In this document: in pieces, positions 778 through 54,931 of the stretch
How the letters are laid out: the number at the start of each line of letters is the position of its first letter
Numbering within the stretch: position 1 is the stretch's first letter
Assembly: GCA_964016885.1 (NCBI GenBank)
Contig: OZ024741.1
Location: 92,504,001-92,568,000, forward strand
Length of the DNA: 64,000 nt
DNA from: Eledone cirrhosa
Taxonomy: Eukaryota
Direction of reading: 5' to 3'
The notes under the pieces: generated by a model
Databases searched by the model: none
Seen by the model: only the letters and a program-made list of their open reading frames with translations
Told to the model about the DNA's origin: nothing
Program-made: the position numbers and the translations under genes

Positions 778-830
778 AATATATATATGTATATATATAT
801 ATATATAAATATATATATATAAATATATAT

Positions 831-1758
831 ATTCACATATATATCGCTATTTCAGAGCATTTATTCCAATTTCTAATTTCTGCCGGACCGGCAACCGCTC
901 TTTCAAACCAGTTCCTGTACACAGCTAAGTATTCTATAAGTCTCTAGCTGTGTCATTCTCGATAAAAGCACTGGATATGTAGTCCTGAAGATTTCTAACA
1001 AGAATGAAACGCGTAGATTACTTCCCTTGCTTTTATCGAGAATCTAATTGTAATACGTGACGTATTCTATTCTATAGCGATTAGGTCTTCAAAATGTTTA
1101 TTATAAACATACAGAATATTTTCGAATATTCTATGTCTATATTCACATATATATCGCTATTTCAGAGCATTTATTCCAATTTCTAATTTCTGCCGGACCG
1201 GCAACCGCTCTTTCAAACCAGTTCCTGTACACAGCTAAGTATTCTATAAGTCTCTAGCTGTGTCATTCTCGATAAAAGCACTGGATATGTAGTCCTGAAG
1301 ATTTCTAACAAGAATGAAACGCGTAGATTACTTCCCTTGCTTTTATCGAGAATCTAATTGTAATACGTGACGTATTCTATTCTATAGCGATTAGGTCTTC
1401 AAAATGTTTATTATAAACATACAGAATATTTTCGAATATTCTATGTCTATATTCACATATATATCGCTATTTCAGAGCATTTATTCCAATTTCTAATTTC
1501 TGCGGACCGGCAACCGCTCTTTCAAACCAGTTCCTGTACACAGCTAAGTATTCTATAAGTCTCTAGCTGTGTCATTCTCGATAAAGTACTGGATATGTAG
1601 TCCTGAAGATTTCTAACAAGAATGAAACGCGTAGATTACTTCCCTTGCTTTTATCGAGAATCTAATTGTAATACGTGACGTATTCTATTCTATAGTGATT
1701 AGGTCTTCAAAATGTTTATTATAAACATACAGAATATTTCGAATATTCTATGTCTATA
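831..1758 (+). mobile_element. Three tandem ~310-bp non-coding units, each with a hammerhead (non-LTR retrozyme-like)
   Basis: Units start at 831, 1141 and 1451 (ATTCACATATATATCGCTATTTCAGAGC) and are nearly identical. The array is embedded in (TA)n and has no ORF. Confidence 0.9.
979..1021 (+). ncRNA. Type I hammerhead ribozyme (further copies at 1289-1331 and 1597-1639)
   Basis: GUAGUC-CUGAAGA-U-UUCU(AACA)AGAA-U-GAA-ACGCGU-A-GAUUAC. Stem I is extended by a 16-bp distal helix, 955-970 pairing with 1028-1043. Confidence 0.9.
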
Positions 1759-1761
1759 TTC

Positions 1762-6397
<4,636 letters not shown>

Positions 6398-7650: not shown

Positions 7651-7778
<128 letters not shown>

Positions 7779-8426: not shown

Positions 8427-8479
8427 ATCGAACCAACATAACATAGCTTTAAATTAGGATACCTACTACCCACAAAAAC

Positions 8480-8512
<33 letters not shown>

Positions 8513-8806: not shown

Positions 8807-8866
<60 letters not shown>

Positions 8867-11985: not shown

Positions 11986-12038
11986 ATCGAACCAACATAA
12001 CATAGCTTTAAATTAGGATACCTACTACCCACAAAAAC

Positions 12039-12071
<33 letters not shown>

Positions 12072-14837: not shown

Positions 14838-15280
14838 TGCTACTGTACGTCTGTATACATATATGTATGTACGTATACACACATACTTACATTTAAGTAA
14901 GTGCCGTACTAAGAGTGAGAAATGAAATTTCGTTTTCATTTTATTTCAACTTATCGTTTTCGGTATGCCTGACCGACTTAGCTCACTCGATATGCAAATT
15001 AGGCTGCTCAGCCGTTAATTTTCATAAGGAAAGTATATACTTTCGAACGTTCAACTATCTGGCAGATGGGTATACGGTGCTGATGATAGCTAACAAGCTT
15101 GAAACTAGTACATCGTTCCTGTGTCAGTGTTGAACAAAAGGTGACGTGGTTGCCTTAACACCGTACGGCATAAAAATTCAGGGTGTTCAGTTTGTTTACA
15201 AACGAACAAAGCGGCGTTATAATAAGCGTCCGCTAAACTGATACAGGTACACATACATATATGCACGTATGTATATATGG

Positions 15281-15357
<77 letters not shown>

Positions 15358-15407
15358 TGCTACTGTACGTCTGTATACATATATGTATGTACGTATACAC
15401 ACATACT

Positions 15408-15412
<5 letters not shown>
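14618..15412 (+). mobile_element. Opposite-orientation 1.6-mer of the ~494-bp hammerhead unit
   Basis: CAGTGTTGAAC occurs at 14632 and 15125 (period 493). It is preceded by a 13-nt inverted fragment of its own stem II (AGCTTGTTAGCTA). Confidence 0.85.
15074..15116 (+). ncRNA. Type I hammerhead ribozyme with canonical CUGAUGA/GAAA core
   Basis: ACGGUG/CAUCGU stem I, AGCU/AGCU stem II, palindromic ACUAGU stem III, GUA triplet. Distal pairings CUGGCA/UGUCAG and UCAAC/GUUGA. Confidence 0.9.
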
Positions 15413-15451
<39 letters not shown>

Positions 15452-15459
<8 letters not shown>

Positions 15460-18007
15460 TAACAGATTAAAGTTTAAGCAAAGTATCGCTGCTTTCACCC
15501 TTAACGGGATCTTCTGAAACTAACAAAGTCAATCTGTAAACGCAGAACTGGATATTTCAAAAAACGTTGCAACCGGAGGAAGACAGGAAGACGATACTTT
15601 GTTTCGTGGTAACGTTCGCTGGCAAAGAACAGGAAAAAACGAATAATACGTCATTAATAGGAGCGGTGAAAAACAATTACTCGCAAAGACAGAACCACGT
15701 TTATGGTATAAAAGAGGTCGTAGACTAATGTTCTCTTAGGTGGTGCATAGAGACGTTCTCTGGCAATGAACGAAAAAACGAAGATAATAAGTCATATGTG
15801 GAGCGTGGAGAACAATAGCACGCAAAGACAAAACCACGTAAATGGTATAGCAGAAGTCGTAGACTAAAATTAATCTCCGCTACAGAGTTAAGAACAAAGT
15901 AAATAAATGCAATACAGAAGTAATAGAAATAAATACATACATGCAAACAAATACGTACATACACAAGCATACGCAAAACCTTACCATAGGTATACAAAAC
16001 CACGCACATATAAATATGGGTGTGTGTGTGTATGCTTGTGTACAAATAAATAAATAATTATATCAATGTATATAAGTAAATAAATACGTATATAACAAGC
16101 GCACACGTATACCTACATATAAATACACGAATGATCGGAGACGTAAGTCAACTAAAACAAGAAGTACACATATACACACACCCACCATACGTACGAACCT
16201 GCATACTCACGCAGACGCAAAACTCCCGTATACACATAGCCAAACCCTAAATACCAGACTATGTAAAAATTATACGCCATAACAGTCAAATATACGTACG
16301 AGAAAGTATACATACCTTCACAAAACATACGGGTAATATATACTTACCTATGCAAATAAGTAAAGGAATAAACAAAACATATACTTAGCTCATTAAAATG
16401 TCTTACTCTACGACTCCTAACCTTGCACATAACATCACAGCTTCAAATTTAGCTAAACTACCTAGCCGTAGGAACACGTGCAACCCTGTAGTTAGTACTA
16501 ACTGTAATTGTAGGAATCGGGCTGATTGCCCCCTATCCGGGAAATGCCTCTCTAGTAACATTGTCTACAAATGTAAGGTTGTAACACCCACGTCCCATAG
16601 GGCCTACGTAGGGTTAACCGCCAATAGTTTCAAGCAGCGTCTTTACATGCATACCCATTCTTTTCGCTACCCTCTAAGAAGGAATATGACGTCACTTTCA
16701 GCTTATATCTGGAGTCTAAAAGATAACCACACCCAATATAAGTTACACTGGGAGATCCTAGCTAGGGCTAGATCGTATAACGGAAATAAAAGACCATGTG
16801 ACCTCTGCGCCGCTGAGGCCCTGGAAATACTCTACGCCACAGACCGCATCTTAAACAAAAAATCTGAGGCAATTTCGGCTTGTAAACATAAATTGCACCA
16901 AACTTTCCTGTATTACAGCCCCACGTTATACCCTAACGGATAGCACGACCTATACGTGGATATTTTACGTCTTGATGTGGGAGCTAAGTATATGTTTTGT
17001 TTATTCCTTTACTTATTTGCATAGGTAAGTATATATTACCCGTATGTTTTGTGAAGGTATGTATACTTTCTCGTACGTATATTTGACTGTTATGGCGTAT
17101 AATTTTTACATAGTCTGGTATTTAGGGTTTGGCTATGTGTATACGGGAGTTTCGCGTCTGCGTGAGTATGCAGGTTCGTACGTATGGTGGGTGTGTGTAT
17201 ATGTGTACTTCTTGTTTTAGTTGACTTACGTCTCCGATCATTCGTGTATTTATATGTAAGTATGCGTGTGCGCTTGTTATATACGTATTTATTTACTTAT
17301 ATACATTGATATAATTATTTATTTATTTGTACACAAGCATACACACACACACACATATTTATATGTGCGTGGTTTTGTATACCTATGGTAAGGTTTTGCG
17401 TATGCTTGTGTATGTACGTATCTGTTTGCATGTATGTATTTATTTGTTTCTATTACTTCTGTATTGTATTTATTTACTTTGTTCTTAACTCTGTAGCGGA
17501 GATTAATTTTAGTCTACGACTTCTGCTATACCATTTACGTGGTTTTGTATTTGCGTGCTATTGTTCTCCACGCTCCACATATGACTTATTATCTTCGTTT
17601 TTTCGTTCATTGCCAGAGAACGTCTCTATGCACCACCTAAGAGAACATTAGTCTACGACCTCTTTTATACCATAAACGTGGTTCTGTCTTTGCGCGTAAT
17701 TGTTTTTCACCGCTCCTATTAATGACGTATTATTCGTTTTTTCCCGTTCTTTGCCAGCGAACGTTACCACGAACCAAAGTATCGTCTTCCTGTCTTCCTC
17801 CGGTTGCAACGTTTTTTGAAATATCCAGTTCTGCGTTTACAGATTGACTTTGTTAGTTTCAGAAGATCCCGTTAAGGGTGAAAGCAGCGATTATTTGCTT
17901 TAACTTTAATCTGTTATTTTAATAAATATTTGCTCTACGGTTCTTATATATTTGATATATATTTTCCTTATCGAGCCCTCTTTGGATTTTAGTCTTCAAT
18001 TTTATTA

Positions 18008-18014
<7 letters not shown>
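15452..18014 (+). mobile_element. Second PLE family, 5'-truncated, with ~940-bp inverted pLTR
   Basis: 15452-16391 is the reverse complement of 16981-17923. These arms enclose an endonuclease fragment, and the element has (TA)n flanks. Confidence 0.9.
16392..16943 (+). pseudogene. PLE linker plus GIY-YIG endonuclease fragment
   Basis: KMSYSTTPN, CNCRNRADCPL, IVY...YVG, CDLC, LNKKSE and CKH; homologous to the C-termini of the ORFs ending at 11985 and 25205. Confidence 0.9.
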
Positions 18015-18097
<83 letters not shown>

Positions 18098-23110: not shown

Positions 23111-23747
23111 GGGCGGCCAGCGCGTGGGACCCCATTTGCTCATAATAGTGAAAGATAGGTGAGCGAGAGAGATGGGGTCGATGACAATGGGGGTTCGGCT
23201 CCTTTATATTCAGACCTGGTGTACGTGTGTGGGTATGCTCTTCCTGTTGTTGTTGTTGTTACTGTGTATATTATAACCGATATTAACAACAAACTCTGAT
23301 CTCTTATTATAAGGGAAATAATCCTTTGCCAGAATAACATATTGGTAAATAAGGCTATTTTCTTCCTATTTACATATTTTAATAAACTCCGAAACAAGAA
23401 AGAACTGAAGTCATGGTCAACCTCATTTGTTAGAAGATATTTTGCCCTACATTTAATCATTAGTAAATATTTGTTGTTATTCACCATTACTTACAAATAT
23501 GAAAGCCCACATCCTATCATTCAGCTCCTTATTTAGACGGTAAGATGTTGTCAGCGATCCATTAGCTCAGTGGTTAGAACACCTATTCGGTATCTGTGTG
23601 TGTGTGTGTGTGTGTGTGTGTAACAATAAAAATAAAAGGTGACGTATAGAAATCAAAATAATATCTATACATAGAAATTACTCAACAGGTAGGCAAATCA
23701 GATCAGCAACTAAGATAGAGCTAAGAAGGCCAAAGTTAAACAGAAAA

Positions 23748-25205
23748 ATGAATGGAAAAACAACAACCATACCCAAACAAACAATACTGACTTATATAAA
23801 TGGCGGTACAAATGATGCACTTCTACTTATAGAATATAAAAAATTTAATATAGAAAGAACTAGAAAACAATTGCATAAGACATTCAAAAACTTTAACCTT
23901 AGTATCACCATGGACAAAAACACTAAAAATGTTAACTTCCTAGACGCCACACTATACCTAGACTCAAAAATATATACACCTTTCCATAAGCCTAACGAGA
24001 AACTTATTTATGTAGATACCAAGTCTAATCACCCTAGATCAATATTAAACTCTATCTCTAAGGGGGTGTCCAATAGAATCTCTAGTCTGTCCTATGACGC
24101 AAACATATTTAGCAAAAACTCACAATATTACAATCAAGCATTAGCTAGCTCCGGCCATAATATAGAAATTGAGTTCCTACCTAAGAAAACACATAGCTAC
24201 AACATCATCTCGCACAACATGTCCATGAGGAAACCTAATAATAGGAATAGCAACCACAAGTACACCAAAGCGGAGGGTGCCACCGGAAGTAACCATTACC
24301 ATGGAAACTACTGTGGTGCCTTAGGAAGAAGCAACACACCAAACACTAAAAGCAAAAATAGAAGAAGAAATAATACATTTTTCAACCCTCCTTTCAACCT
24401 AAATGTCTCCACCAACATACCTAGGGCTTTCTTCTCACTACTAGATAAAAACTTCCCTCTAGGACACAAGTACCACAACCTCTTAAACAAAAACACCATT
24501 AAAATCTCATACTCTACGACGCCTAACTTAGCATACCACATAGCTAGCAGCAATAATAGTAAAATTAATTCTTACTTCCAACAAACAAAATCACAACAGG
24601 ATGCAAACCCTCTAAATACCTCTGTAGCAAGCAACCATAGCAACGGCAGTAACAATAGAAATAACACTAGTATAAGTAATAACACCAGGGTTGACAACCC
24701 GAACGCCAAAAATCCTATAGCTACCACACAGACTTCCGCACTGCATTATAACCAGCAGACTAATGCACAGGATAATTGTAACTGTAGAGCTAATAGAACC
24801 TGCCCTTTAGATAAAAAATGCCTAACCAAGGATATCATATACTCATGCACCGTCACGACTAGCAACTCTTCAGAAACCTATGTAGGCTCCACTTCTAACT
24901 GCTTCAAAATCAGATATAATTCGCACATCCACTCGTTCAAAAAGCACAGCCTAGCCAACTCCACCTCACTTTCTAGCTACATACACTATCTAAAAACTAA
25001 AAATAAACCATACACACTCAAATGGGAAGTGATAGGCAGCGCAACCTCGTACAAACCACCTAATAAATTTTGTAACCTCTGTATACTAGAGACACACAAT
25101 ATTATCTTCTCCAACCGTAACCTACTTAACAAAAAATCTGAGGTGTTTGCAACTTGCCAGCACCGCTTCAGACATTCCTTCCAAAACTTTAAGCCCAATA
25201 TATAG
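23748..25205 (+). pseudogene. PLE RT thumb, linker and GIY-YIG endonuclease; RT active site degenerate
   Basis: VNFLDATL, FHKPNE, SNHP, FFNPPF, CNCRANRTC, IIY...YVG, CNLC and CQH. GGTNDALL stands where GGIYRDDTLL is expected. Confidence 0.88.
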
Positions 25206-26900: not shown

Positions 26901-26919
26901 AAATAGTATAACTAATACT

Positions 26920-27590
26920 ATATATATATATATATATAAATTTTTTTTAAACACACAAACAGCGGACAACAGAAGCCACGTACCGTTGCTCTCCGACAGA
27001 TAACTTCCCCCCCCCCCCCAGTTGATGGATGCGAATCCAAAATATAGGGACAATTAAATCTCTCCCAAGGTAACTCTATCTTGTGTTATTAGTTTTATTT
27101 TTTACGCTCTTTCCTACGTTCCTCTACACACTATACATCTCATTCTACATTCCCTTACATCTCTCTTTTCACCACCGGATTCTGTTACCCGGAGATTTAC
27201 CCATCTGCATTGTTGAGGCTTCCAAAACGGACCCCAAAAATTTTATTATTCCACAATGCTTCAAGCAAACTTCAATACTCTCATATATATTGGAAGCCTC
27301 AACAATGCAGATGGGTAAATCTCCGGGTAACAGAATCCGGTGGTGAAAAGAGAGATGTAAGGGAATGTAGAATGAGATGTATAGTGTGTAGAGGAACGTA
27401 GGAAAGAGCGTAAAAAATAAAACTAATAACACAAGATAGAGTTACCTTGGGAGAGATTTAATTGTCCCTATATTTTGGATTCGCATCCATCAACTGGGGG
27501 GGGGGGGAGTTATCTGTCGGAGAGCAACGGTACGTGGCTTCTGTTGTCCGCTGTTTGTGTGTTTAAAAAAATTTATATATATATATATAT
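26920..27590. repeat. Long inverted repeat (~300-bp arms, ~65-bp spacer)
   Basis: The arm ending at 27225 (GAGGCTTCCAA) mirrors the arm starting at 27290 (TTGGAAGCCTC). Mirror-image ORFs appear on both strands. Confidence 0.93.
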
Positions 27591-27599
27591 TATATAGTT

Positions 27600-29087
27600 A
27601 TACTTTGGGAGGGTCATGTTGCCAATAAGAAACACACGTAGCAGTTGCTTTCACTTCAATTTATTATAATAAATTTATAAATTTAGGAATTTATAAATTT
27701 CCGGTTGGTTGGTTGGTTCCACAACCAGATGGTTGTTTATATATTGTCAAAGTTCTTTCGTCACACATTCTGTGACCTCTTCAGTGACTGTGGGATCTTT
27801 TCTTTGTTTTTTGTGCCTCTCCTTTGTTCTGTCCTACGCCATCTTGTTTTTGTGTGCGTGTTGTGTGCTTGGTTTGCGCATGTGTTACATCCGGGTGTCT
27901 GTGTGTTTATATTCGTTTATTTATTTGTTTATTTACATGTTACTGGTTGGTTGTTTGTTCTATGTACGTGTGTGTTTTCATTTTTTTTGTCCTTAATTGT
28001 AAGTTGTGATGTTGCTGTTCCACTCATGTTTTCTATTTAATTTTGGTTGTAATTCATTTATGTTTATTGCCTCTGTGATTTGTCTAAACATTGCGTCTTT
28101 TCTGTGTGTAGATTCTATTTTTATTTCTATGTTCTCTAATTTACCCTTATGTTCTATTTTAGCATAGTACAGATGTTAAAGATGTAGAGTACAGATGATT
28201 CTTTACTATCTTGAAGGTCTCGCCAGTGTATACTACGAGCTGTCTCGCCTATGTACACTATATTTTTATCTCTACATTGTCCTTCAGTACATCTTATGCT
28301 ATATACTACATTTCTAGTTTTACAGTTAATATGGGGGCTTAATTTACAGATTATACATTTCTTATCTATACAGGGAGGTCTTTGAAAAGGGTATGTATTG
28401 CTAATAAGTGTTTTTATGGAGGTACCTGGTCTTCCTACTATCTTAATATTGAGTTTATTTTTATCTAGGGCCCTTCTAAATTTGTAAGCTAATTCACCTC
28501 TAGGGGTTGTATCGATGAACATTACATTCTGGTATGTATTGCTATCATACCATGAGTTTATTCTATTAGCCTTATTCCTAGTTCTATTCTATTGCAAAAG
28601 TTGCTCCTATACAAGGTGTAGGTCCCATTTGTGTCATTATTTACCATTTTTTCCCATTTGGTTCTGGCTCCTCTATACACTCTGATTTTATCTCTCTGAT
28701 TGTAACCAGAGAACTGCATACGGTGGATGAAGTGTTGTATGTGTCTCTCTAGTTCTTCGGGGTTGCACATGCGGGACACGTTTCTCATCACCCGTACCAA
28801 ATCCGCAATCAGTATGTTGATTTTGGTATGGTCCGAAACAGCTGAGTTTCGGTGGATCAGATGTTTGGAAGTCATGGGTTTGGCATAATGGGAATGGAGG
28901 ATTTGTTTTTTGTTATTAATGGTATCTAACCATAGCTCTGTGTCTAGTACGGGTAATCGATGGTTGGGGTGTTTGCTTGGGTAGTCTATAGTAACTCTAA
29001 TACTCTGGTGGATGGAGTTAGCTATTTGCTGGATGCTTTCCATTGTGTTTTTCTCTAATTCCTGACTGTTCTCTAGTGGGAGAAATT
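27600..29087 (-). mobile_element. Fourth PLE family (Neptune/Nematis-like), 5'-truncated and frameshifted
   Basis: LPVLDTELW, YAKPM, MQFSGY, MFIDTTPRGELA, linker C-x4-CxxC-x7-C and VVY...YIGETARS. The 3' region carries an HHR. Clade assignment is tentative. Confidence 0.85.
27746..27788 (-). ncRNA. Type I hammerhead (second copy at 46192-46234 -)
   Basis: GUCA-CUGAAGA-G-GUCACA(GAAUG)UGUGAC-GAA-AGAACU-U-UGAC. The second copy differs only at variable N7 (CUGAUGA) and by a C-G to U-G wobble in stem I. Confidence 0.85.
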
Positions 29088-29190: not shown

Positions 29191-32100
29191 TGTTTCTTTT
29201 ATTTGCCACCAGGGCATCAAAAGTGGGACAAGTACAATGGGGGGAGTTTACAAAACAAGGCGTCCTCAATAAGGAGGAGGCAATAACAAAATATAAAAAT
29301 AAAATAAAATATAACAGAATAAAATATATAACAAAATCCTCAATAGAGAGGAGGCGCCTTGGGGAGTCGCACACACCCCCGAAAAAAGTGTGCAACCCTT
29401 TTCCTCAGGAGCACAGAGAAGGGGTGCTCCCTTGGTCTTTCATCTTCCTCACCTATAGTCTGATGTAGAGTGAAGGCCCATTCACATGGGCCATTCTCGC
29501 CACTTTCACCCATCTTTCATAAAAACGACTGGGGTGCAGCACCTCTCTCTCCATCCTGGTCCTTCTTTCGAAATGATATCGGAAGAAAGGGACCAGTTGT
29601 TGACCAGAGAGAAAGGTGTCTGACCTCAGTCCTTTCAGACGCGTCCACCATACAACCTCTTTCGCCATGGCTATTACGCACAGAAACACCGCCTCTTCTT
29701 CGTTTTTGAAGAGGGGAGGTGGCTTGATCGTTACAATAGACTCGGTGGACAACCGGATCGGTCCCACCCTTGACAGCAGTTGTTCGACATAGCCCCACAG
29801 ATCGGCAATGCCCGAGCAGTGTACCAATGCGTGTGCAACGGTTTCCTCGTCGCACACGCATCTGCGACAGATCTTTTTCGAGGGGTCCCTACCCGGGCGC
29901 CCGTGTCTGTAGAGCCTTTCTCGAACGGGCAGAGCCCTTCTGTAGTATTACAAGGCCAGGGACCTCTGGAAGTTATCCATGGGTCCCGGGCTGAATGTCC
30001 TACCGAACAGGTTGGCCAGTTCGTCTTCCTCCATGCCTAGGGCTTCTCCGAGGGCGTCGTCGCACCTGCTAACCACCAGCCCTCTATAGAGTGACGAGGT
30101 GGATTCTCCACTGACAGCTGGGTCCGCCTGCCAGAGAGCCGTGAGCGCCTGGGCACACTCGGTGTGCCAGGCGCCCAGTTTTCTCGGTCTTTGCTTGACC
30201 CAGGATTGCAGCTCGTTGAGTGAGACGAGTCTGGGAAAGGCTTCCTCACAAACGGGGCCCACACCGGTTGACCGGAGAGGAATACCTGAAGGTGCCGTAG
30301 CCTTAATGCGTGTTTACGTATCATTAGCCACGGCATCCCCAGCCCTCCTTTCGAAGGGTGTTGACAGCAGATGGATCTCCTCACCATAGGAGCCCGCTTC
30401 TTCCAAAGGAATTGGAAGAGTGCGCGCTCCATTTTGGCGAGCGTTTCCCTTGGGCAAGGCACAACGGTCAGGCGGTAGTAGATGACGGAGCTATATAAGT
30501 GTTCGCCACCTCCGCCCGACCTTTCAGGGACAGTTTGCACTCGGCCCACTTCTGGGTCAGTGCAAACACCCTGTTCGTTACCTCACCCCAGTTCTTCTCC
30601 ACCTGGAGGTCTGGTCCGAACCAGACCCCGAGCAACTTCACCGGGCCCTCCGTCCAGCGCCCGACGACGCCATCGGAGGGCATCGATCTGCCCCTCCACG
30701 TGCCGAGTTGCAGACCGATCGACTTGTCCCGGTTCAGCTTAGCCCCTGTAAACCTTTCGTACTCCTCCAGTAAGGTGCCGATCGCCCCGATTTCCGAGGC
30801 CGTCGACACCATTACTGTTACGTCATCGGCGTAGGCTGACACCGCTTTCCGCAATCCCGGTTCCAACGGGATGCCCTGCAACAACTCCAACTTCCGCAGC
30901 AGTGGCTCTAGAGTCATTACATACAGAAGGGAGGAGAGAGGGCACCCCTGTCGGATGGACCGCGCGATTTCGAACGACTCCGAGAGGAAGCCGTTCACCT
31001 TAACCCTAGAGCAGATGCGGCTGCTGTGCATGGCATTGATCCAGCCCCTGAAAACGGGTCCGAAGCCTGCCGCCGCTAGCACGACATCCAGGTAACCATG
31101 GTCGACCCTATCGAATGCCTTAGATTGATCCAAGTTGATCAGGGCCCCACCAAAGCCGGGTTCGTTCCCAACCCTCTCTATGATGTATCGCATGAGGTGG
31201 AGGTTGTCGTGGATGAACCTGGACGGGATAGCACATGTCTGCGCATCTCCTACCAGGTTGCCCACGACAAGCGCCAACCTCTTTGCTAGCACCTTGGCCA
31301 AAATCTGTAACTCTGTATTTAGCAGAGTTATGGGCCTGAAATTATTTATATCGTCCCCCTTGTCCTCGTCCTTCCTCACTAGCATGACTACGCCCTTGGT
31401 CACAGCACAGGGAATTCTCCCGTTCTGTTGCCAGTTGCAGTAGACCGCCTCGAGGAGATCGGGGAACAAGTCCGGCATAGCTAGATATAGTTCGTATGGA
31501 AGACCATCGAGACCCGGGGATTTGCGTTTGCCGCATTGGCTCAGCACGTCCTCTATCGGGACAGGCCCCTACGTAGTCCCAGCGTGCATCTTGGATACCA
31601 TTCCAGTCCCCCACTAATAGCAAGGAGCGGGACGTCCCTAGAAAAGTCTCCAGACGATGGAAGAATTCCGGCCGCATTGACCCGAAAGGTGAAGAGAAAA
31701 GGCACTTACCTCTCTGCGTCCCGGGTATCGGGCTGCACAATTTCCATTAGGGTGGGTGATGGGTTGTTGGGTGGGGTGGTGGTTTGTGGAGGTGTAGGGG
31801 CATCAGTGTGTTGTGTGGTTGGGGAGTTTGGAGTTGTGTGGGTGTTTCGGGAGGAGGTGGGGTAGTTTTTAGGAGGACGCGGTTTATGGGCCCGACGCAG
31901 GGGGGACCCACGTCCTCTTTAAAATTGTTTTTTAAAGTTTTATAGGTGTCCTGTGGGGCCTTAATCATTTTGAGGTGGGGGAAATCCCCTGCCTGGGTGA
32001 AGTTAGGCCCTTGGGTTTTTATTAGATTGTTGTTGTACACAATGTTTAACAGTTTTTTGTTTCTTGTGTTTATGTATGTGTATGCATGTTTTTGTTTTTG

Positions 32101-33237
32101 TGTGGCTTTTTTTGTTTGCTGTTGTTGTGAGCTCTTTTGTGTTGGTGTCAGTGTTATGTTTTGGGGAGGGGTTGTTTTCATTTTTGTGTCTGAGGTGTGT
32201 TTTCTTTTTTTTCTTTTGATTGTGTGGAAGTGTTCCTCCTCGTCTGACGACGAACTAGGGTCATCTTCCGCGTTGGAGGGGAGGGGTATATTTTCGGGTT
32301 GTGTTTGCGGTGCGGGTGTTTTGGAAATTGTTTTTGTTTTTTGAGTGGGGGGGTGGGGGGGGGGGGGGGGTTGGACATTGTTTTGTTTTTGTTTGTGCTG
32401 TGGTGGTTGTTTTTGTAGTGGTGGTTGTGGTGATTGTGTTGGTTGTGCAGTTGTTGGTTGTGTAGGCAGGATTGGGGTTTTCTTATTAAGTTGGGGACAG
32501 ACAACCCTCAGGTGACCTCTGGTTCCGCAGAGGTAACACGAGGGCCGCCTACCCTCAACGGTAATGGATCGTGAATGAACCATTTTCCCCGTACACTATA
32601 TATTTTTTGGCATCTGCCAGTAGATCCTTCGCTTTGGTTATATCTACTGGCAGATAGTCGAGGGTTTTCCTTGCCGTCTCGGCGAAGGAGAAATTATATT
32701 GTTTGTGTTGCTGTTGTAGTTGGTGGTGTTGTTGTTATCATTGTTGTTGTTATCACAGTTATTGGTCTTGTTGTTGTTATTGTTATTTGTGTTGTTTTCG
32801 TCCGTCGCATTGTTGTTGTTGTTGTTGCTGTTGCTGGTGCCGCTGGTTCTTTGGGTTGTTGCCATGGCAACGTCAAGTTGTCGGTCAACAGGTGGAGGAA
32901 ATCCTTCCTCTGGCTGACCTTTCTTTTTGACCTCTGCTACTGTGACAGTGGCAGGGGGGAAGCTGTAAGCTTATCTTCCCCTTTCCTCCTTCGAATTTTG
33001 GTGAAGATGCTTCAGCCATTTTTATCAAAATAGGATTTTTCGAAATTTTTCGAAAGATTAAATTTTTACAAAATTATTTCGCCTAAAGGCGTAGAATATT
33101 TTGAGAGACTGACCAGATCAAAGTTTGACCTGGCAGTCTCTCTACAAAGTGGTACAAAAATGAAAGTTTACAGTTCACAATTTCCAGATAAATTTAAACG
33201 AAACTTACCGAGCGAGCTCAGCACGTGTCTATCCCAG
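29191..33237 (-). mobile_element. Tx1/L1-clade LINE, apparently retaining both ends but internally deleted and frameshifted
   Basis: ORF1 remnants from ATG 33019 with knuckle CYLCGTRGHLRVVC. RT at 30468-31547 (SPGLDG, FRPITLLN, DQSKAFD, QGCPLS, YADD). 3' AATAAA followed by (TATC)n. Confidence 0.92.
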
Positions 33238-33503
33238 AGATAGATAGATAGATAGATAGATAGATTTCTTTATTAGCCACAGGGGCACAAAAGAAGGGGA
33301 CAAATACAAAGGGGGAAGTTTACATACAATAAAAACGTGTAAAATGTTATCACAAATGGAATTTAAAAAGTTAGTCGATTTTCCCCAATAGAGGGAGACA
33401 GTTTATATGGGTAACACATACCCCCGAAAAAAAATGTGCAACCCTCATCTCCAGGAGTACGAAGAGTTTGTACTCCCTTCCTCTCCTCCTCCTTTTCCTC
33501 AAC

Positions 33504-36500
33504 ATACAGGCTGATATAGAGAGAAGGCCCATTCACTCGGGCCATTCTCGCCACTTTCACCCACCTTTCATAAAACTTGCTGGGGTACAGCACCTCTCTC
33601 TCCATCCTGATTCTTCTTCCAAAGTGGTATTTGAAAAAAAGAATCAGTTGTTGGCCGGAGAGAAAGGTGTCTGACCTCAGCCCTTTCAACCTTGTCCACC
33701 ATACAATCTCTTTCGCCATAGCTATCACACAAAGGAAAACCGCCTCTCCTTCGTTTTTGAAGGAGGGTGGCGGTTTGATCATGACAATGGACTCGGTGGT
33801 CAACTGGATTGGTCCCACCCGCGACAATAGTCGTTCTACATAGCCCCACAGGTCAGTGACGCTCGGGCAGTGTATGAATGCGTGCGCGACGGTTTCTTCG
33901 TCTCGCACGCACCTCGGACAGATCTTTTTTGCAGGGTCCCTGCCCGGGCGCCCATGTCTGTAGAGCTTGTCTCGAACTGGTAGAGCTCCTCGGTAGCACT
34001 GCCAGGCCAGGGGCTTTTGGAAGTTGTCCATCGGTCCCGGGCGGAAGGTCCTACCGAACAGACTGGCCAGTTCATATTCCTCTACGCCTAGAGTTTCACC
34101 GAGCGCGTCGTCGCACTTGCTGCGGACCAACCCTCTATAGAATGATGAAGTGGAGTCTCCACTGATCGCCGGGTCCGCCTGCCAGAGGGCTGTGAACGCC
34201 TGAGCACATTCGATGTGCCAGTCGCCCATTTTCCTCGGTCTTTGCTTGACCCAGGACTGCAGCTCGGTCAGCGAGACGAGTCGTGGGAAGGCTCGCCTCA
34301 CGAACGGGGCCCACATCGGTTATCCGGTGAGGAATACGTAGAGATGCCGCAGCCTGAGCGCGTGTTTGCGCATCGTCAACCACGGCATCCCCAGCCCGCC
34401 GTTAGAAGGGTGTTGGCAGCAGATGGATCTTCTCACCAAAGGAGCCCGCCTCTTCCAAAGGAATCGGAAGAGCGCGCGCTCCATTTTGGCGAGCGTTTTG
34501 GCTGGACAAGGCACGACGGTCAAGTGGTAGTAGATGGCGGACGCTATAAAAGTGTTCGCCACCTCCGCTCGACCTTTCAAGGATAGTTTGCACTCGGCCC
34601 ACTTCTGGGTGAGTGCAAACACCTTGGCCGTCACTTCGTTCCAGTTCTTCTCCACCTGGAGGTCCGGACCAAACCAGACCCCGAGCATCTTTACCGGTCC
34701 TTCCGTCCAGCGTCCGACGACGCCATCGGAAGGCATCGGTCTGCCTCTCCACGATCCGAGTTGCAAACCGATGGACTTGTCCCGGTTCAGCTTCGCTCCT
34801 GTGAGACTTTCGTATTCCTTCAGTAAGGTGCCGACTTCCTCGATTTGCGAGGCGCTCGACACCATTACTGTCACGTCGTCGGCGTAGGCCGACGCCGCTT
34901 TCCGCAATCCCGGTTCCAGAGGGATGCCCTGCAATAGCTCCAGCTTCCGCAGTAGTGGCTCGAGAGTCAGTACGTACAGAAGGGAAGAGAGAGGGCATCC
35001 CTTTCGAATGGATCGCGTAATATGGAACGGCTCCGAGAGGTAGCCGTTCACCTTAACCCTTGAGCAGATGTTGCTGTTGTGCATTGCAGCAATCCCGCCC
35101 CTGAACACGGGTCCGAAGCATGCCGCCTCGAGCACCGCATCCAGGTAACGATGGTCAACCCTATCGAAAGCCTTAGACTGATCCAAGTTGATCAGGGCCC
35201 CACCGAAGCCGGGTTTACACCCTACCCTCTCTATGATGTATCGCATGAGGTGGAGGTTGTCGTGTATGGACCTGGTCGGGATTGCGCATGTCTGCGCTTC
35301 TCCCACCAGGTTCTCGACGACAAGCGCCAGCCTCTTTGCCAACACCTTGGCCAAAATCTGTAACTCTGTGTTTAGCAGAGTTATGGGCCGGAAGTTGCCT
35401 ATGTCATCCCCCTTATTCTCGTCCTTCCTGATTAGTGTGACCACGCCCCCGGTTACAGAACTGGGAATTCTCCCGTTCTGTTGCCAGTTGCAGTAGACCG
35501 CTTCCAGGAGACCGGAGAATAAGTCCGGCATTGCTACGTAAAATTCGTAGGGTAGACCGTCGAGACCTGAAGATTTGCGTTTGCCGCATTGGCTCAGCGC
35601 GTCCCCTATCTCAGTGGCTGAAATCGGCTTTTCGCAGAACTTCGCCTCGCTGTCCGAGAGTCGCGGTAGGCCGTCGAGGTATGGACCGAAATCCATAGCC
35701 TCTCCCGGCGCGCCGCTCCCCCCGAACAGCCGAGCAAAGTGCCGCTGAAAAGCCGCACACATCTGCTTCGGCTCACGTATCACGCGTCCGTTTTGGTCCT
35801 TCAAAGACCGAATCGTGGACTTGTTGCCACTTTTTGCCTCCGTCACTCGGGCCCAGCTAACAGCTTTGGCTCCCTCGTTTCCCAGAGCACGTATTTTGCT
35901 TCTGACAACGCAGCCCTCGTGCTTTGCGTCGAAGAACTGGTCCAATGCCGTTCTCGTTGCTAGCACGCTGGCTACGTTGCCACTTCTAATTGCCTCTTCT
36001 ACTTTATCTACCAGTTCCTTCTCGGTTCTATTTCTATCTAACGCTAATTCTTTACTAAAAACTATCGAGTCTAATCTAACTGCCCTCTTGAGAGAGTACC
36101 ACCATCTGTTGTTGACAATGGCCCCTGTCAAGTGCTGTTTAACTAAAGTGCTAATCCGTCTACTGTAGGCTTTGCTTGTCGGTAACGACAAGTTCAGCTT
36201 CCAGTAGCCGGGTCCTTGTCTATGGGTTCTATAAAGGTTGGCCATGCAGGTCACTAGTTTGTGATCTGAATAGGCAACCATGAACATTTGTGGACAGCTT
36301 AACATGTCCCTATCCTTATTTCTAACTAGAACCCTATCTAGGTACGATCTAGATGTTCCGCTACAATTACTCCACGTCCACAGTGGCGCAGTCGGAAAAT
36401 CTAGTCGATATCTATCGGCCAGGTCAAATCGGTCGATTAACTGTTTGAGGCTGTTACGCCCCCCTTTATCGGGACATGCTCCCACATAGTCCCAACGTGC

Positions 36501-36941
36501 ATCTAGGATTCCATTCCAGTCCCCCACTAAAAGCAAGGAGCGGGACGTTCCCAGAAAATTCTCTAGACGATTGAAGAAGTTTGGCCGTGGTGTCCCGGAT
36601 GGGGCATATGCGGCCACCAGCCTGAAGGCTCCACCTTCACTACCGTCAACGTCTAGGACCACCAGTCGACCCTCCGGGTCCAGATGTACTGTCTGTGTTA
36701 CGAGGCCCAGGTGTTTCCGCAGCAAAACGGCAACTCCGCCCCCACCCCCCGGTTGACAGAGAGATGCGTAGATCTCAAAGTCATCGAAGATGGGGGCCAG
36801 CTGTCGCTCGCCGTGGATCCTGGACTCGCAAATGGCTACCACATCCATACTGTGCGACCTGAGGTCGTTTAAGAGTTTGCCCTGTTTCCAGGGCATCCCC
36901 AGGCCGCGTACGTTCACACATCCAACTCTTATATTGGCCAT
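33504..36941 (-). pseudogene. ORF2 (APE endonuclease, RT, CCHC) with one in-frame nonsense codon
   Basis: NVRGL, GDWN, SYLD, SDH, YADD and CPRC...ETVAH...C. TAA at 34320-34322 replaces Gln (LSGQPVW in the sister copies). The normal stop is mutated to TAT at 33504. Confidence 0.93.
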
Positions 36942-36974
36942 GTTGGTGCTGAAAAGTTAAAAGAGGAAATGAGA

Positions 36975-38212
36975 TCACTCACCCTTCGCCTCCTGGGGAC
37001 CAGGCCGCACGATTTCCATGGGGGTGTTGGAGGGGTTGTCTGGATGGGTGGTGGTTTCCGGCGGGGTGGGGATGCAGATGTTTGGTGGGGTGGGGTCTGG
37101 TGGGATGGGGGTGTCTGGGGTGGGGAGGCATTTGAGAAGGACGCGGTTGAGTGGTTTCACGCAGGAATTCCCCACATCCTTCTCAAATGTTTCTTTTAGG
37201 GACCTATAAGTTTGTATAGGGACCCTAATCAGTTTTAGGTTCAGTTTTTTGCTATTTTTAATAGAGTGGGCGAAAGTTTTCCCTTCGGTGAAAACCGAAG
37301 GGTCGTTCGTGATGGTCTCCATTAGTGTTTTGTTTTCAGTGTTTATGTAAGTGTAAGTGTAATTTTCTTGTGTTGTGTTTGTTTTTGTCTGTAGTTCTTG
37401 TGTGTGCTTTCGTTTTGTTGTAGGTATTTTGTTTTCAGGAGGTGGGGGTTTTGTTTGTGATATTTTTGTTGTTTGTGTTGGTGGTTGTATGTTTGTGGTA
37501 GTGTTTGCTGGTTTTTTGCTTTTGTGATGTCTTTTCTTTCTTTTCGAGCGATGGGGTTCTCCCTCGTCTTCACTGGGTGATGGCGAGATAGCCTCATCTG
37601 TTGTATCGTCTGTGTGATTGGGGAGGGGTATGTCTTGGGGAGCTGTTGTGTCTGTATGTGATTTTGCAGTGGTTTTAGGTGGAGTGGGGTTGGGTGGGAC
37701 TGTGTTTGTTGTGGTTATTTTTGTGTGTTGGTGTTGTTGTTGTGGTGGTGGTGTTGGTGGTTGTGTTGTTTTGATGGGTGTCGGCAGAAGAGCCTTTTTT
37801 TGGTTCATTAGTTTAGGACAGGAAGCCCTCAGGTGACCCCTGCTAAAGCAATGGTAACATGAAGGCCGCCTACCCTCAACCGAAAGATTTATGTAGGTGA
37901 GTCCGTCCAGGAGTACACGCTGTGGGATCATAGCTATTCGCTCTGGGCTGATTTGCACCAGAACTTCAATGCTAGTCCCATTGAATACATCTCTGGGGGA
38001 CTTTCCTACTGACAGTATTCTGTCTCCATCAAAATTGATGAAGCCGCACAGTATCCACCATATGTTCACCTTTGGTGTGACACTTGTGATTCTGATCTTT
38101 TGTGTCCTTTTTCCCATGTATGTAGGGAAAAAGGTGTACAGGTTGGATACAATTGGCGACACAGAGTAATTTTGGGCCGTCAATTGATCCTTCATGAGTA
38201 CCGAAATACTCC
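36975..38212 (-). pseudogene. ORF1 (gag-like, zinc knuckle), 5'-truncated
   Basis: VEGRRPSCYHCFSRGHLRASCP and a Pro/Thr/Lys-rich tail. The stop lies 33 nt before the ORF2 ATG. Confidence 0.85.
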
Positions 38213-38246
<34 letters not shown>

Positions 38247-38254
38247 GATAGATA

Positions 38255-39989
38255 TGTTTCTTTTATTTGCCACCAGGGCATCAAAAGTGGGACAAGTACA
38301 ATGGGGGGAGTTTACAAAACAAGGCGTCCTCAATAAGGAGGAAGCAATAACAAGATATAAAAATAAAATAAAATATAACAAAAAATAAAATTTATAACAA
38401 AGTCCTCAATACACACACCCCCGAAAAAAAGTGTGCAACCCTTTTCCTCGGGAGCACAGAGAAGGGGTGCTCCCTTGGTCTTTCATCTTCCTCACCTATA
38501 GTCTGATGTAGAGTGAAGGCCCATTCACACGGGCCATTCTCGCCACTTTCACCCATCTTTCATAAAAACGACTGGGGTGGAGCACCTCTCTCTCCATCCT
38601 GATCCTTCTTCTGAAATGATATCGGAAGAAACGGACCAGTTGTTGGCCAGAGAGAAGGGTGTCTGACCTCAGTCCTTTCAGACGCGTCCACCATACAACC
38701 TCTTTCGCCATAGCTATTACGCACAGAAACACTGCCTCTTCTTCGTTTTTGAAGAGGGGAGGCGGCTTGATCGTTGGTGGTCAACCGGATCGGTCCCACC
38801 CTTGACAGCAGTTGTTCGACATAGCCCCACAGATCGGCAATGCCCGAGCAGTGTACCAATGCGTGTGCAACGGTTTCCTCGTCGCACACGCATCTGGGAC
38901 AGATCTTTTTCAAGGGGTCCCTACCCGGGCACCCGTGTCTGTAGAGCCTTTCTCGAACGGGCAGAGCCCTTCTGTAGCATTGCCAGGCCAGGGACCTCTG
39001 GAAGTTATCCATGGGTCCCGGGCTGAATGTCCTACCGAACAGGTTGGCCAGTTCGTCTTCCTCCATGCCTAGGGCTTCTCCGAGGGCGTCGTCGCACCTG
39101 CTAACCACCAGCCCTCTATAGAATGACGAGGTGGATTCTCCACTGACAGCCGGGTCCGCCTGCCAGAGAGCCGTGAGCGCCTGGGCACACTCGGTGTGCC
39201 AGGCGCCCAGTTTTCTCGGTCTTTGCTTGACCCAGGATTGCAGCTCGGTGAGTGAGACGAGTCTGGGAAAGGTTCGCCTCACAAACGGGGCCCACACCGG
39301 TTGACCGGAGAGGAATACCTGAAGGTGCCGTAGCCTTAATGCGTGTTTACGTATCATTAGCCACGGCATCCCCAGCCCTCCTTTCGAAGGGTGTTGACAG
39401 CAGATGGATCTCCTCACCATAGGAGCCCGCTTCTTCCAAAGGAATTGGAAGAGTGCGCACTCCATTTTGGCGAGCGTTTCCCTTGGGCAAGGCACAACGG
39501 TCAGGCGGTAGTAGATGACGGACGCTATATAAGTGTTCGCCACCTCCGCCCGACCTTTCAGGGACAGTTTGCACTCGGCCCACTTCTGGGTCAGTGCAAA
39601 CACCCTGTTCGTTACCTCACCCCAGTTCTTCTCCAACTGGAGGTCTGGTCCGAACCAGACCCCGAGCAACTTCACCGGGCCCTCCGTCCAGCGCCCGACG
39701 ACGCCATCGGAGGGCATCGATCTGCCCCTCCACGTGCCGAGTTGCAGACCGATCGACTTGTCCCGGTTCAGCTTAGCCCCTGTAAACCTTTCGTACTCCT
39801 CCAGTAAGGTGCCGATCGCCCCGATTTCCGAGGCCGTCGACACCATTATTGTTACGTCATCGGCGTAGGCTGACACCGCTTTCCGCAATCCCGGTTCCAA
39901 CGGGATGCCCTGCAACAACTCCAACTTCCGCAGCAGTGGCTCTAGAGTCATTACATACAGAAGGGAGGAGAGAGGGCACTCCTGTCGGA
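38255..39989 (-). mobile_element. 5'-truncated Tx1/L1-clade LINE, same subfamily as 29191-33237
   Basis: Near-identical to 29191-30955 and starts within the RT QGCPLS region. Confidence 0.93.
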
Positions 39990-40345
39990 ATAGATAGGTA
40001 GGTAGGTAGGTGGGTGGGTGGGTGGGTGGGTAGGGGGGTAGAGAGGTAGGTAGGTAGTTAAGTCGGTGGGGAGGTAGGTGGGTGGGTAGGTAGGTAGGTA
40101 GGTAGGTAGTTAAGTAGGTGGGTAGGTAGTTAAGTAGGATGGTAGGTGGGTAGGTAAGTAGGTAGTTAAGTAGGTGGGTAGGTAGGTAGGTAGGTAGGTA
40201 GTTAAGTAGAGAGGGAGGTGGGTAGGTAGGTAGGTAGTTAAGTAGGCGGGTAGGTGGGTAGGTAGGTAGGTAGGTAGGTAGTTAAGTAGAGAGGGAGGTG
40301 GGTAGGTAGGTAGGTAGTTAAGTAGGTGCGTAGGTAGGTAGGTAG
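39990..40345. repeat. Compound (GGTA/GGTG/GATA)n microsatellite; continuation of the tract at 29088-29190
   Basis: Direct reading. Confidence 0.9.
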
Positions 40346-44849: not shown

Positions 44850-44911
<62 letters not shown>

Positions 44912-44924
<13 letters not shown>

Positions 44925-45551
44925 ATATTAGTATTGGTGCTCTGAAATAGCGATGTATACATGAATGTATGTATAGTATATTTGGCAATATACCGTATGT
45001 TTAATTAAAAACATTTAGAAGACCATTCACTATCAGTTTTAAAATAGTGACTATGTCACTTACTTATATTTTCGCCAATGGCTGGGGGAGTGGCTGGCAG
45101 CTGTTTCTCGCTGCTTGGCGTTTATCAAAGCCATGCACTCACCTGCCTTTGCCGAAAATTATAGAAGCTGGATTCTTATAGAATTCCAGTACTAATCAGG
45201 AGCTGATTACACAGAGCAATTGCCGGTCCAACAAAAATTAAGTATTAGTATTGGTATCGCTCTGTGTAATCAGCTCCTGATTAGTACTGGAATTCTATAA
45301 GAATCCAGCTTCTATAATTTTCGGCAAAGGCAGGTAAGTGCGTGGCTTTGATAAACGCCAAGCAGCGAGAAACAGCTGCCAGCCACTCTCCCAGCCCTTG
45401 CCGAAAATATAAGTAAGTGACATAGTCACTATTTTAAAACTGATAGTGAATGGTCTTCTAAATGTTTTTAATTAAACATACGGTATATTGCCAAATATAC
45501 TATACATACATTTATGTACACATCGCTATTTCAGAGCACCAATACTAATAT

Positions 45552-45564
<13 letters not shown>
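44912..45564. mobile_element. Fold-back insertion of a 317-bp HHR unit homologous to the 310-bp tandem unit
   Basis: Arms at 44912-45217 and 45259-45564. TATTAGTATTGGT occurs at 44926 and 45243 (period 317). Shares ATCGCTATTTCAGAGCA, GGACCGGCAA, ATTCTATAAG and GGTCTTC.AAATGTTT with the 831-1758 units. HHR-like motifs at 45090-45134 (-) and 45342-45386 (+). Confidence 0.85.
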
Positions 45565-45596
<32 letters not shown>

Positions 45597-45936
45597 GGAG
45601 GTGAGTTTTATTGTAGTACAATAAAGCAATGCAGATATCGGATAAGAAGCACTCTACAGTTTGTAGGACTGGAGTATACATAATATATAAGAACAAAAGA
45701 TGGTTAAAAGAGTTCCATGTATTTTATTATGCGCATTTCATGTTGATTTAAAACTGCACTATCCACAAGTGTTTTTTTAACCTTCATATCTTCCTGTTTT
45801 ATCTGATAAAAACACAAATATTATTGCATGATGATATTTGTTTTTGAAATGCGCATAATAAAATACATGGAACTCTTTTAACCATCTTTTGTTCTTATAT
45901 ATATATATATATATATATATATACCCCCACATACAC

Positions 45937-45984
<48 letters not shown>

Positions 45985-45986
<2 letters not shown>

Positions 45987-46548
45987 TTCGTTTCCGAATT
46001 TGTTTAGCAAGATTCTTTATCTGAAAACGTGTGTTGAAACCGATATTGTTATGCTTTAGGAGGGTCATGTTGCCAATAAGAAACACACGCACCAGTTGCT
46101 TTCACTCCAATTTATTATAAATTAAAAATAATTTTTTTATAAATTTCCGGTTGGTTGGTTGGTTCCACAACCGGACGGTTGTTCATATATTGTCAAAGTT
46201 CTTTCGTCACACATTCTGTGACCTCATCAGTAACCGGGGATTCTTTTCTTTGTTTTGTGCCTCTCCTTTGTTCTGTCCTACGCCATCTTGTTTTTGTGTG
46301 TGTTGTGTGCTTAGTTTGCGCATGTGTTACATCCGGGTGTCCGTGTGTGTTTTTTGTTTATTTATTTATTTACATGTTACTAGAATGTGTGACGAAAGAA
46401 CTTTGACAATATATGAACAACCGTCCGGTTGTAGAACCAACCAACCGGAAATTTATTAAAAAAAAATTTTTATTTATAATAAATTGGAGTGAAAGCAACT
46501 AATGCGTGTGTTTCTTATTGGCAACATGACCTTCGCAAAGTATAACAA
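45985..46548 (-). mobile_element. Solo pLTR of the fourth PLE family with 5' inversion
   Basis: 46045-46381 matches 27597-27943. 46382-46548 is the reverse complement of ~46045-46218, with the breakpoint inside HHR stem II. Confidence 0.85.
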
Positions 46549-46550
46549 TT

Positions 46551-48260: not shown

Positions 48261-48407
48261 AAATTAAAAGCACAGAGTGGAATACATGCACCAGATAATA
48301 CAAGATAATAGTCTAATTGAGGTAGTAGGAAATTACTGACCTTCCTGTTTATAGTTGTTTATACTATATGCATAACTATAAATAGTATTATTATATATAT
48401 ATATATA

Positions 48408-48960
48408 TATTATAATTGAATATAAAAGAAAGACGAACACAGATATATACATATATGTGTTCAAATGGTAAGGGACCAGATTCGCTAAGGTGAAAAGAAT
48501 ACTAACTATAGACTATAGGGTTTGTCTGACTCAATTTAAGAATAAATCAAGAAAATAAATACATGTGCGTTGTTATATATACGCACACTATTCAGTTTCT
48601 TAATATACTTAGAAGTGTCTAGGATACTAATTCTTCACCCACTGATGAGCAAGAATGGGCATTCCTATTCACAATTAATTTTGCGAAACAGCAGTACCAA
48701 AAGCTGTCCGGGTGATCGGTAGTTACCACAATTCTGGTTTGTATTTATTTTCTTGATTTATTCTTAAATTGAGTCAGGCAAGCCCTATAGTCTATAGTTA
48801 GTATTCTTTTCACCTTAGCGAATCTGGTCCCTTACGATTTGAACACATATATGTATATATCTGTTCGTCTTTCTTTTATATTCAATTATAATATACGGCT
48901 CGGAAAAATCTCTTTTCTAGAGCTATTTTATTGTAAGAGACTATTTTGAGATTCTAACTC
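48408..48960 (+). mobile_element. HHR unit with ~155-bp 5' inversion; HHR at 48635-48715
   Basis: 48408-48563 mirrors 48740-48893. UCACCC-A-CUGAUGA-GCAA...UUGC-GAA-ACAGC(loop)GCUGU-C-C-GGGUGA is related to the 19810 motif. Confidence 0.8.
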
Positions 48961-49290: not shown

Positions 49291-49459
49291 TCTTAAAATA
49301 TATCGAACGGCTTTTACAAAAAAAATCAAGTGAAATACTTTGTGTTGTTAAATGTCTAGACAGCAAAACCACCCCACGGTGGTTTTGCTGTCTAGACATT
49401 TAACAACACAAAGTATTTCACTTGAATTTTTTGTAAAAGCTGTTCGATATATTTTAAGA
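49291..49459. repeat. Fold-back palindrome (~83-bp arms, 4-nt loop)
   Basis: TCTTAAAATATATCGAAC...AAAACCACC-CCAC-GGTGGTTTT...GTTCGATATATTTTAAGA. Confidence 0.93.
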
Positions 49460-54512: not shown

Positions 54513-54931
54513 ACCTAAAAAATACGCAAGCTCAAAAGAGCCATAGAATGTTATAATAAACCTTCAAAAGTGTGGGACTAGAGTTGTTGCTTAAAAATAT
54601 TGTAATCATTATCTATCGTACACTCTGTGGCATCCTTTTATAAAAAAGCGACTCATAACGAACTCAAGACGACACGATAATTATTTAAGTGAATTTATAA
54701 TATAGAATTCGGTTTAAGTGCATTTCGTATCTAATATAAGATATTGAACATTAGCTTAAATAATTATCGTGTCGTCTTGAGTTCGTTATGAGTCTCTTTT
54801 TTATAAAAGGATGCCACAGAGTGTACGATAGATAATGATTACAATATTTTTTAGTAACAACTCTAGTCCCACACTTTTGAAGGTTTATTATAACATTCTG
54901 TGGCTCTTTTGAGCTTGCGCATTTTTCAGGT
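54513..54931. repeat. Inverted repeat (~177-bp arms, 65-bp spacer)
   Basis: 54513-54689 mirrors 54755-54931 with scattered substitutions. Confidence 0.92.

Follow-up and report, generated by a model that had tools for sequence, protein, structure and literature searches.

The window analyzed here is a 64,000-nt stretch of Eledone cirrhosa contig OZ024741.1 (positions 92,504,001–92,568,000), rich in TA and other microsatellites and in retroelement ORFs. At 44926–45550 it holds a head-to-head pair of a 317-bp unit, whose arms are 97% complementary and stop at the identical unit position, each followed by (TA)n (Table 1). No ORF of at least 150 aa was found at this locus. An initial annotation had claimed that the 317-bp unit is homologous along its length to a 310-bp unit repeated elsewhere in the window, and global alignment bears this out: the left arm scored 208.5 and the right arm 162, whereas 200 shuffles of each reached at most 58.5 and 67, respectively. 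The two units differ in the hammerhead core in the way that had been described (UUGAUAA versus CUGAAGA): the 310-bp repeat has CTGAAGA (C3:G8) at 985, 1295, and 1603, whereas the inverted pair has TTGATAA at 45348 on the plus strand and at 45128 on the minus strand. The locus at 44926–45550 and the 310-bp repeat belong to one family of hammerhead-bearing, TA-targeting repeats, in which the unit is 310–317 bp long, non-coding, and about 38% GC and is found dispersed, in tandem arrays, and in partial tandems. Every unit carries a single canonical type I hammerhead, and its circular form is predicted to pair with itself.

Table 1. Coordinates, within the window, of the inverted pair, its hammerhead elements, its flanks, and the comparison repeat.
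Feature	Coordinates	Strand	Comment
310-bp tandem repeat	828..1771	+	3.1 copies; young subfamily (A); comparison unit
(TA)n microsatellite flank	44852..44925		Inferred insertion target
Left arm	44926..45255	-	Full 317-bp unit plus 13 nt of next unit; hammerhead-sense on minus strand
Left-arm hammerhead motif	45090..45134	-	U3:A8 core; U16.1C; private stem I mismatch at 45134
Right arm	45256..45550	+	317-bp unit 5'-truncated by 35 nt
Distal helix enclosing right-arm hammerhead	45318..45407	+	45318-45330 with 45395-45407
Right-arm type I hammerhead motif	45342..45386	+	
Right-arm stem I	45342-45347/45381-45386	+	
Right-arm core U3-A9	45348-45354	+	
Right-arm stem II	45355-45368	+	A.A at 10.1/11.1
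Right-arm GAAA	45369-45372	+	
Right-arm stem III	45372-45379	+	Private U16.1C at 45379
Right-arm C17	45380	+	
(TA)n microsatellite flank	45551..45593		Inferred insertion target

The subfamily of the window copy has a type I core with a Watson–Crick 3:8 pair in the form of U3:A8, with A15.1:U16.1, and with H17. The window copy itself does not have an intact core: U16.1 is changed to C in each arm, as had been annotated, at a position where 65 of 73 relatives have U and one copy besides the two arms has C. This change disrupts the 8-nt stem III palindrome of the subfamily, ACAGCUGU. The contrast drawn earlier between the stem III palindromes CAGCUG and ACGCGU was located as claimed, but the true palindrome of the subfamily is this 8-nt one. 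The stem I pairing GUGGCU/AGCCAC is right for the right arm and not for the left, which reads AUGGCU through its private mismatch. The distal helix is indeed still paired; the right arm has a single private mismatch there, and the left arm has two. A read-through transcript of the window copy is predicted to form one long hairpin, with 592 of 626 nt paired. Because U16.1C is private, because the arms would pair with each other, and because there is no tandem partner, the earlier suspicion that this copy may be dead has gained ground, and the copy is probably a dead, ordinary insertion.

The two window arms have four rare changes in common, U16.1C among them. Across loci, the arms of inverted pairs share rare changes at 50 in 5,536 columns versus 307 in 138,170 for random pairs of copies, or about four times more often, and this excess suggests either arm-to-arm conversion or copy-specific templates. 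In the window copy, the sharing of U16.1C and three other rare changes means that a core-damaged RNA may have served as the template, unless the arms converted each other; either event would account for the pattern. The shared U16.1C would weigh mildly against a strict requirement for cutting in every round. An Rfam scan gave no hammerhead model match at E values up to 1 and missed the canonical-core 310-bp copies as well; its hairpin-type miRNA matches were attributed to the palindrome and the TA repeats.

Core states and subfamilies

The genome searched comprises 3.0 Gb in 1,796 contigs. A first DNA search returned 3,068 first-look candidates, 40 of which were scored. A pattern with fixed flanks and free positions 3 and 8 matched 407 times in the genome (control, 0), which by hand count are 305 C3G8, 60 U3A8, 12 U3G8, 14 C3A8, and 16 other; two complementary patterns collected all non-C3 matches (81) and all C3 non-G8 matches (21). 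The half-changed copies in this fixed context number 26 (U3G8 plus C3A8), and independent decay would yield about 0.5 doubles versus the 60 U3A8 copies counted. Among 153 aligned copies, a sample deliberately enriched for rare states from which 11 of 164 had been dropped beforehand as short, 22 of 318 columns distinguish two groups. One background is common to all 73 U3A8 copies in this alignment, and the C3G8 background carries 14 of 14 C3A8 and 9 of 10 U3G8 copies. Because the half-changed copies lie nearly all on the C3:G8 background, half-changes represent post-insertion damage, and U3:A8 marks a subfamily (C). Copy-specific decay, which the initial annotation had named as the outcome that would undo its reading, does not explain the window core: U3:A8 is the fixed state of subfamily C, present in 63 of 69 copies, with C3:G8 in none (two C3/U8 rows also fall in this subfamily). 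Independent variation of positions 3 and 8 was looked for and not seen. The nearest abundant sister of subfamily C is B1, which is C3:G8, agrees with it in the 5' strand of stem I and the beginning of stem II, and is five times commoner in the fixed context (305 versus 60). The comparison of the 317-bp with the 310-bp unit is therefore too simple, as the sister is C3:G8 and several switches lie on the subfamily tree. A generic U3:A8 pattern was discarded, its 105 matches (76 in the control) being mostly chance; of 14 such matches examined, 8 came from the 310/317 family.

The lead to the D subfamilies came from contigs assembled from four sequencing runs of unrecorded kind, and D1 proved to be a second U3:A8 subfamily (30 of 32 copies U3A8, zero C3G8). 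Wrap-around contigs of 340 nt of the 310-bp unit were rejected as a sign of a circle, since tandem DNA explains them equally well. Among the sequencing runs listed as containing the sequence there was no RNA run, which speaks neither for nor against expression. A core-blind pattern gave 801 genome matches (control, 0), and the first 100 matches listed were retrieved. By nearest marker copy, 266 hammerhead-bearing copies were placed in 14 subfamilies, 2 of 268 having been removed as antisense false matches. Subfamilies A and B1–B5 are C3:G8, and subfamilies C, early C, D1–D4, E, and E2 are U3:A8. U3A8 occurs in 0 of 140 B copies and C3G8 in 0 of 124 C, D, and E copies. A half-change is fixed in none of the 14 subfamilies among these 266 copies, several of the subfamilies holding just 2–6 copies. 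The E group has 928 matches, and the first 100 listed are 98 U3A8 and 2 U3G8.

Trees were built from 124, 61, 44, and 50 rows selected by length (12 of 29 new E copies were excluded as short from the 50-row tree). When columns 3 and 8 are left out, the ladder runs from A (C:G) through D and C (U:A) and B (C:G) to E (U:A). The best trees require three paired changes (bootstrap 5–95% range 3–3), and starred branches force every one of them. The tests reject a single U3:A8 group, with p-AU 0.011 (44 rows) and 0.0013 (50 rows); a first tree with the 310 unit as sole outgroup had given such a single U3:A8 origin, nested in C3:G8, and was overturned by wider sampling. Because a two-switch tree is rejected in no test (p-AU 0.051–0.25), the sequences are taken to indicate at least two paired switches, which are well supported, and probably three. 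The three switch steps carry substitutions at 20/302, 65/306, and 74/323, and the chance of column 8 changing on the steps of column 3 is 0.003 if three steps are counted and 0.015 if there are two.

Position 11.1 is U if and only if the core is C3:G8, in 14 of 14 subfamilies. This apparent coupling is a lead only, because 5 columns change on all three steps (about 1 expected by chance) and because other families with ACAGCUGU as stem III combine C3:G8 with A11.1. An ADAR-like A-to-G excess was not seen in the subfamily steps (T>C 50, C>T 44, A>G 37, G>A 34). Mean pairwise difference, from 2–5 copies each, is 0.10 in D1, 0.07 in C and B1, 0.03–0.05 in E1 and E2, 0.09 in E3, and 0.003 in A. These values suggest that D1 is the oldest, followed by C and B1 and then by E1 and E2, with A the youngest, an order that in this small sample would fit the direction U:A to C:G to U:A. 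A more ambitious version, in which the core pair moved from U:A to C:G and back to U:A along a datable ladder, faster than neutral and each time with a change at 11.1, is tentative and on balance doubtful. If it were true, the 3:8 switches would tune the cleavage rate epistatically, the genome would hold a natural ordered series for an active site crossing between two compensated states, and these copies would be among the clearest sequence evidence for Penelope-type mobilization of animal retrozymes. At two loci, young 310-bp arrays directly adjoin old D1 copies, which suggests repeated insertion into the same TA tracts.

RNA structure of the unit

The structure set consists of 28 natural representatives, the least decayed of each subfamily, with 67% mean column identity. 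In these representatives, 90.8% of cells pair, compared with 40–56% in slid controls, and two-sided change is found in 23 of 30 pairs, judged against shuffles that ignore relatedness. Two-sided changes are present in all six helices, and stem I is open; covariation extends over stem I, stem II, the distal helix, and stem III, which is self-complementary. The core bases U4, G5, A6, and A9 do not vary in any of the 28 representatives, while G12–A15.1 and U16.1 are kept in 27 of 28. Stem III is 6 to 13 nt long and largely self-complementary (perfectly so in A, B5, C, and E2), as expected for cleavage as dimers in the account given in PMC6765202. The 10.1:11.1 pair is standard in 8 of the 28 and is A.A in subfamily C; a non-standard pair may weaken cutting. 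The circular monomer folds have z scores of -4.2 and -5.4 versus 40 two-letter-block shuffles each. With stems that covary and subfamilies fixed only for paired 3:8 states, the earlier proposal that selection acted on RNA structure across subfamilies is upheld. From the invariant core we infer that selection may have acted on catalysis specifically, and the always-paired switching of the core likely reflects selection on self-cleavage. Repeated, strictly paired switching, with no half-changed subfamily among 14, is comparative evidence for selection of the active conformation during replication.

Mode of spread and competing readings

Copies of subfamily A are mostly 100% identical and occur in arrays of up to about 19 units; an inverted piece is present in 11 of 12 distinct loci, and the 3' ends, which fall on a small number of AT-like positions of the unit, adjoin (TA)n. 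For the older subfamilies, 114 loci (four locus sets with slight overlap) were surveyed, of which 53 have an inverted 5' piece and 77 have (TA)3+ past the 3' end. No LTR layout was seen at the loci, and target-site duplications are unreadable inside (TA)n. Inverted 5'-truncated copies and a microsatellite bias are described as Penelope-type traits (10.1101/2021.04.23.441226), and Penelope elements have been proposed as partners of animal retrozymes (PMC7229834; PMC7761336), a proposal on which the TA targeting and 5' inversions seen here bear. Reviews call the role of the hammerhead in animal retroelements unclear (PMC7761336). The family is most likely a metazoan non-LTR retrozyme that would be moved by Penelope-type enzymes.

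Under the proposed mechanism, multimeric transcripts would cut themselves 3' of the GUH triplet, probably in dimers formed via the self-complementary stem III, and the cleaved monomers would circularize. At nicked (TA)n, a Penelope-type RT/GIY-YIG enzyme would then reverse-transcribe the circles. If each strand of the self-complementary (TA)n target served as primer, two arms would be generated, which may be why the arms end at one unit position. Replication would continue solely for source copies with a Watson–Crick 3:8 pair, with inserted copies decaying at random; it is proposed that the pair switches as a unit because only such sources replicate. As a whole, the locus is quite likely an inactive, 5'-inverted, retrozyme-like insertion from a U3:A8-fixed subfamily that spread by predicted self-cleavage and Penelope RT.

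The window contains ORFs at 6945–12060, 15272–18096, and 23643–25205 that we take to encode Penelope-like RT/endonuclease, a label based on sequence motifs and repeat layout. These ORFs gave no Pfam or PDB match, so the mobilizing partner is a putative one, and they share no sequence with the unit. The element at 6945–12060 has a 444-nt terminal repeat that is 99% identical, an inverted 5' copy, and TA at its end. No hammerhead was found in the ends of the Penelope-like elements of the window.

Whether the U3:A8 hammerheads cut at all has to be weighed. They could be crippled or non-cutting, with the overall fold selected for RT recognition or stability and with read-through transcripts or trans cutting by other subfamilies supplying the substrate. 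Such a reading would suit the A.A or C.A at 10.1:11.1 in C and D, the U16.1C common to both window arms, the successful amplification of hammerhead-free Penelope clades (10.1101/2021.04.23.441226), and the poor in vitro cutting reported for metazoan minimal hammerheads (PMC4209133). It is nevertheless rather improbable, given that the unpaired core bases are invariant despite turnover of the neighboring stems, that the 3:8 pair is part of the active conformation (PMC3884650), and that the E group, with 98 U3A8 among its first 100 of 928 matches, has a canonical G10.1:C11.1. The number of switches can also be challenged, as there might have been one old C3:G8/U3:A8 switch whose apparent repeats arose when co-existing subfamilies exchanged the short core through recombination or template switching. 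When the whole hammerhead cassette is removed, the backbone-only trees allow a single U3:A8 group (p-AU 0.116 and 0.076), and the units are short enough that co-expressed elements could exchange templates. Swapping of cores is still unlikely: the core-flanking cassettes of D/C are unlike those of E, and those of A unlike those of B, the B cassette is closest to early C, and the cassette-free best trees require three changes anyway.

The remaining alternatives concern what kind of element the unit is. Instead of a free retrozyme, it could be a pseudo-LTR belonging to an autonomous Penelope element, since the insertion signature is identical and U3-A8 is known from Penelope pseudo-LTRs (PMC4209133). 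Three observations make this very unlikely: units join unit to unit; the full stems I–III and loop 1/loop 2 layout are unlike the minimal form; and Penelope-like ORF matches occur in 19 of 342 loci, in flanks of 0.2–1.5 kb, at varying distance and orientation and with no fixed unit-to-ORF junction apparent. The 97% inverted arms and TA flanks of the 625-bp palindrome might also recall a TA-targeting MITE or a foldback DNA element with long terminal inverted repeats, but constant terminal inverted repeats are not present in every copy. An inverted piece is present at no more than about half of the loci, the junctions vary, the arms are unequal, and units also occur in direct tandems of up to about 19, so that this reading is largely refuted and has a negligible probability.

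Known hammerheads and other elements in the window

U3-A8 hammerheads occur naturally, and Perreault et al. (2011, PMC3088659) state, with reference to Przybilski and Hammann (2007), that they have in vitro activity; the variant is also described in about 1,300 motifs of Schistosoma mansoni Penelope elements (2014, PMC4209133). The 3:8 pair forms in the tertiary-stabilized hammerhead fold (PMC3884650). The closest match to the family described here is the metazoan non-LTR retrozymes (Cervera and de la Pena, 2020, PMC7229834), which are likewise 150–450-bp low-GC repeats with a canonical type I hammerhead, tandems, a weak stem III that favors dimers, and a circular form that pairs with itself. 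Expression and cleavage are shown for those retrozymes and are predicted for the unit here; the available text of that paper describes no U3:A8 subfamily or core-switch series, no (TA)n targeting, and no 5' inversions. The hammerheads of the S. mansoni Cercyon Penelope elements (PMC4209133) have the same core covariation and a retroelement context, and some of these motifs, too, lie on opposite strands, at distances of 100–700 bp. Unlike the unit here, they are minimal motifs in the pseudo-LTRs of an autonomous element, and no switch phylogeny is reported in the available part of the source. The U3-A8 hammerheads of Perreault et al. (2011, PMC3088659) have the same compensated pair but are described as scattered examples and not as a switching lineage. 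EN+ Penelope-like elements resemble the family in their 5' truncation, partial tandems, adjacent inverted 5'-truncated copy, and microsatellite bias, but they encode RT and endonuclease, whereas the unit here encodes nothing (Craig et al., 2021, 10.1101/2021.04.23.441226). The literature covered, main texts with few from subscription journals, contained no description of a single retroelement lineage in which the 3:8 pair switches repeatedly. The U3:A8 variant is already known, and its repeated switching inside one lineage appears to be new.

An unrelated second hammerhead repeat lies at 262–626 of the window, with a core at 441 on the minus strand and a second arm near 515 on the plus strand. 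It is a head-to-head pair in TA with a U3:A8 core, a canonical G10.1:C11.1, and ACCGGU as stem III; its family has 6,907 genome matches (control, 0), of which the first 100 listed are all U3/A8. This repeat showed no similarity to the 310/317 family, and a Penelope-like ORF was present in none of 12 loci. Since U3:A8 is not rare in this genome (928 E-group and 6,907 second-family matches), many animal hammerheads escape a search that requires C3/G8. The stem III ACAGCUGU recurs in at least four other hammerhead families with C3:G8, and in these the 10.1:11.1 pair is often non-standard (G.U, C.A, U.U, A.G). With a pattern for such families (99 matches; control, 0), 0 of 30 retrieved loci matched the 310/317 unit at the motif.

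Minimal-type hammerhead motifs occur on the minus strand at 45985–46550 (core 46236) and 27592–27944 (core 27790). The two are 88% alike; in both, one additional base follows A9 and stem II is long, which are features described for Penelope pseudo-LTRs. The interval 29453–40281 holds, on the minus strand, a non-LTR retrotransposon encoding endonuclease and RT domains in several tandem copies, some of them broken. Further long inverted repeats are found in the window at 26905–27604, 45675–45911, 48406–48895, 49291–49459, and 54513–54931 and are possibly more 5'-inverted insertions.
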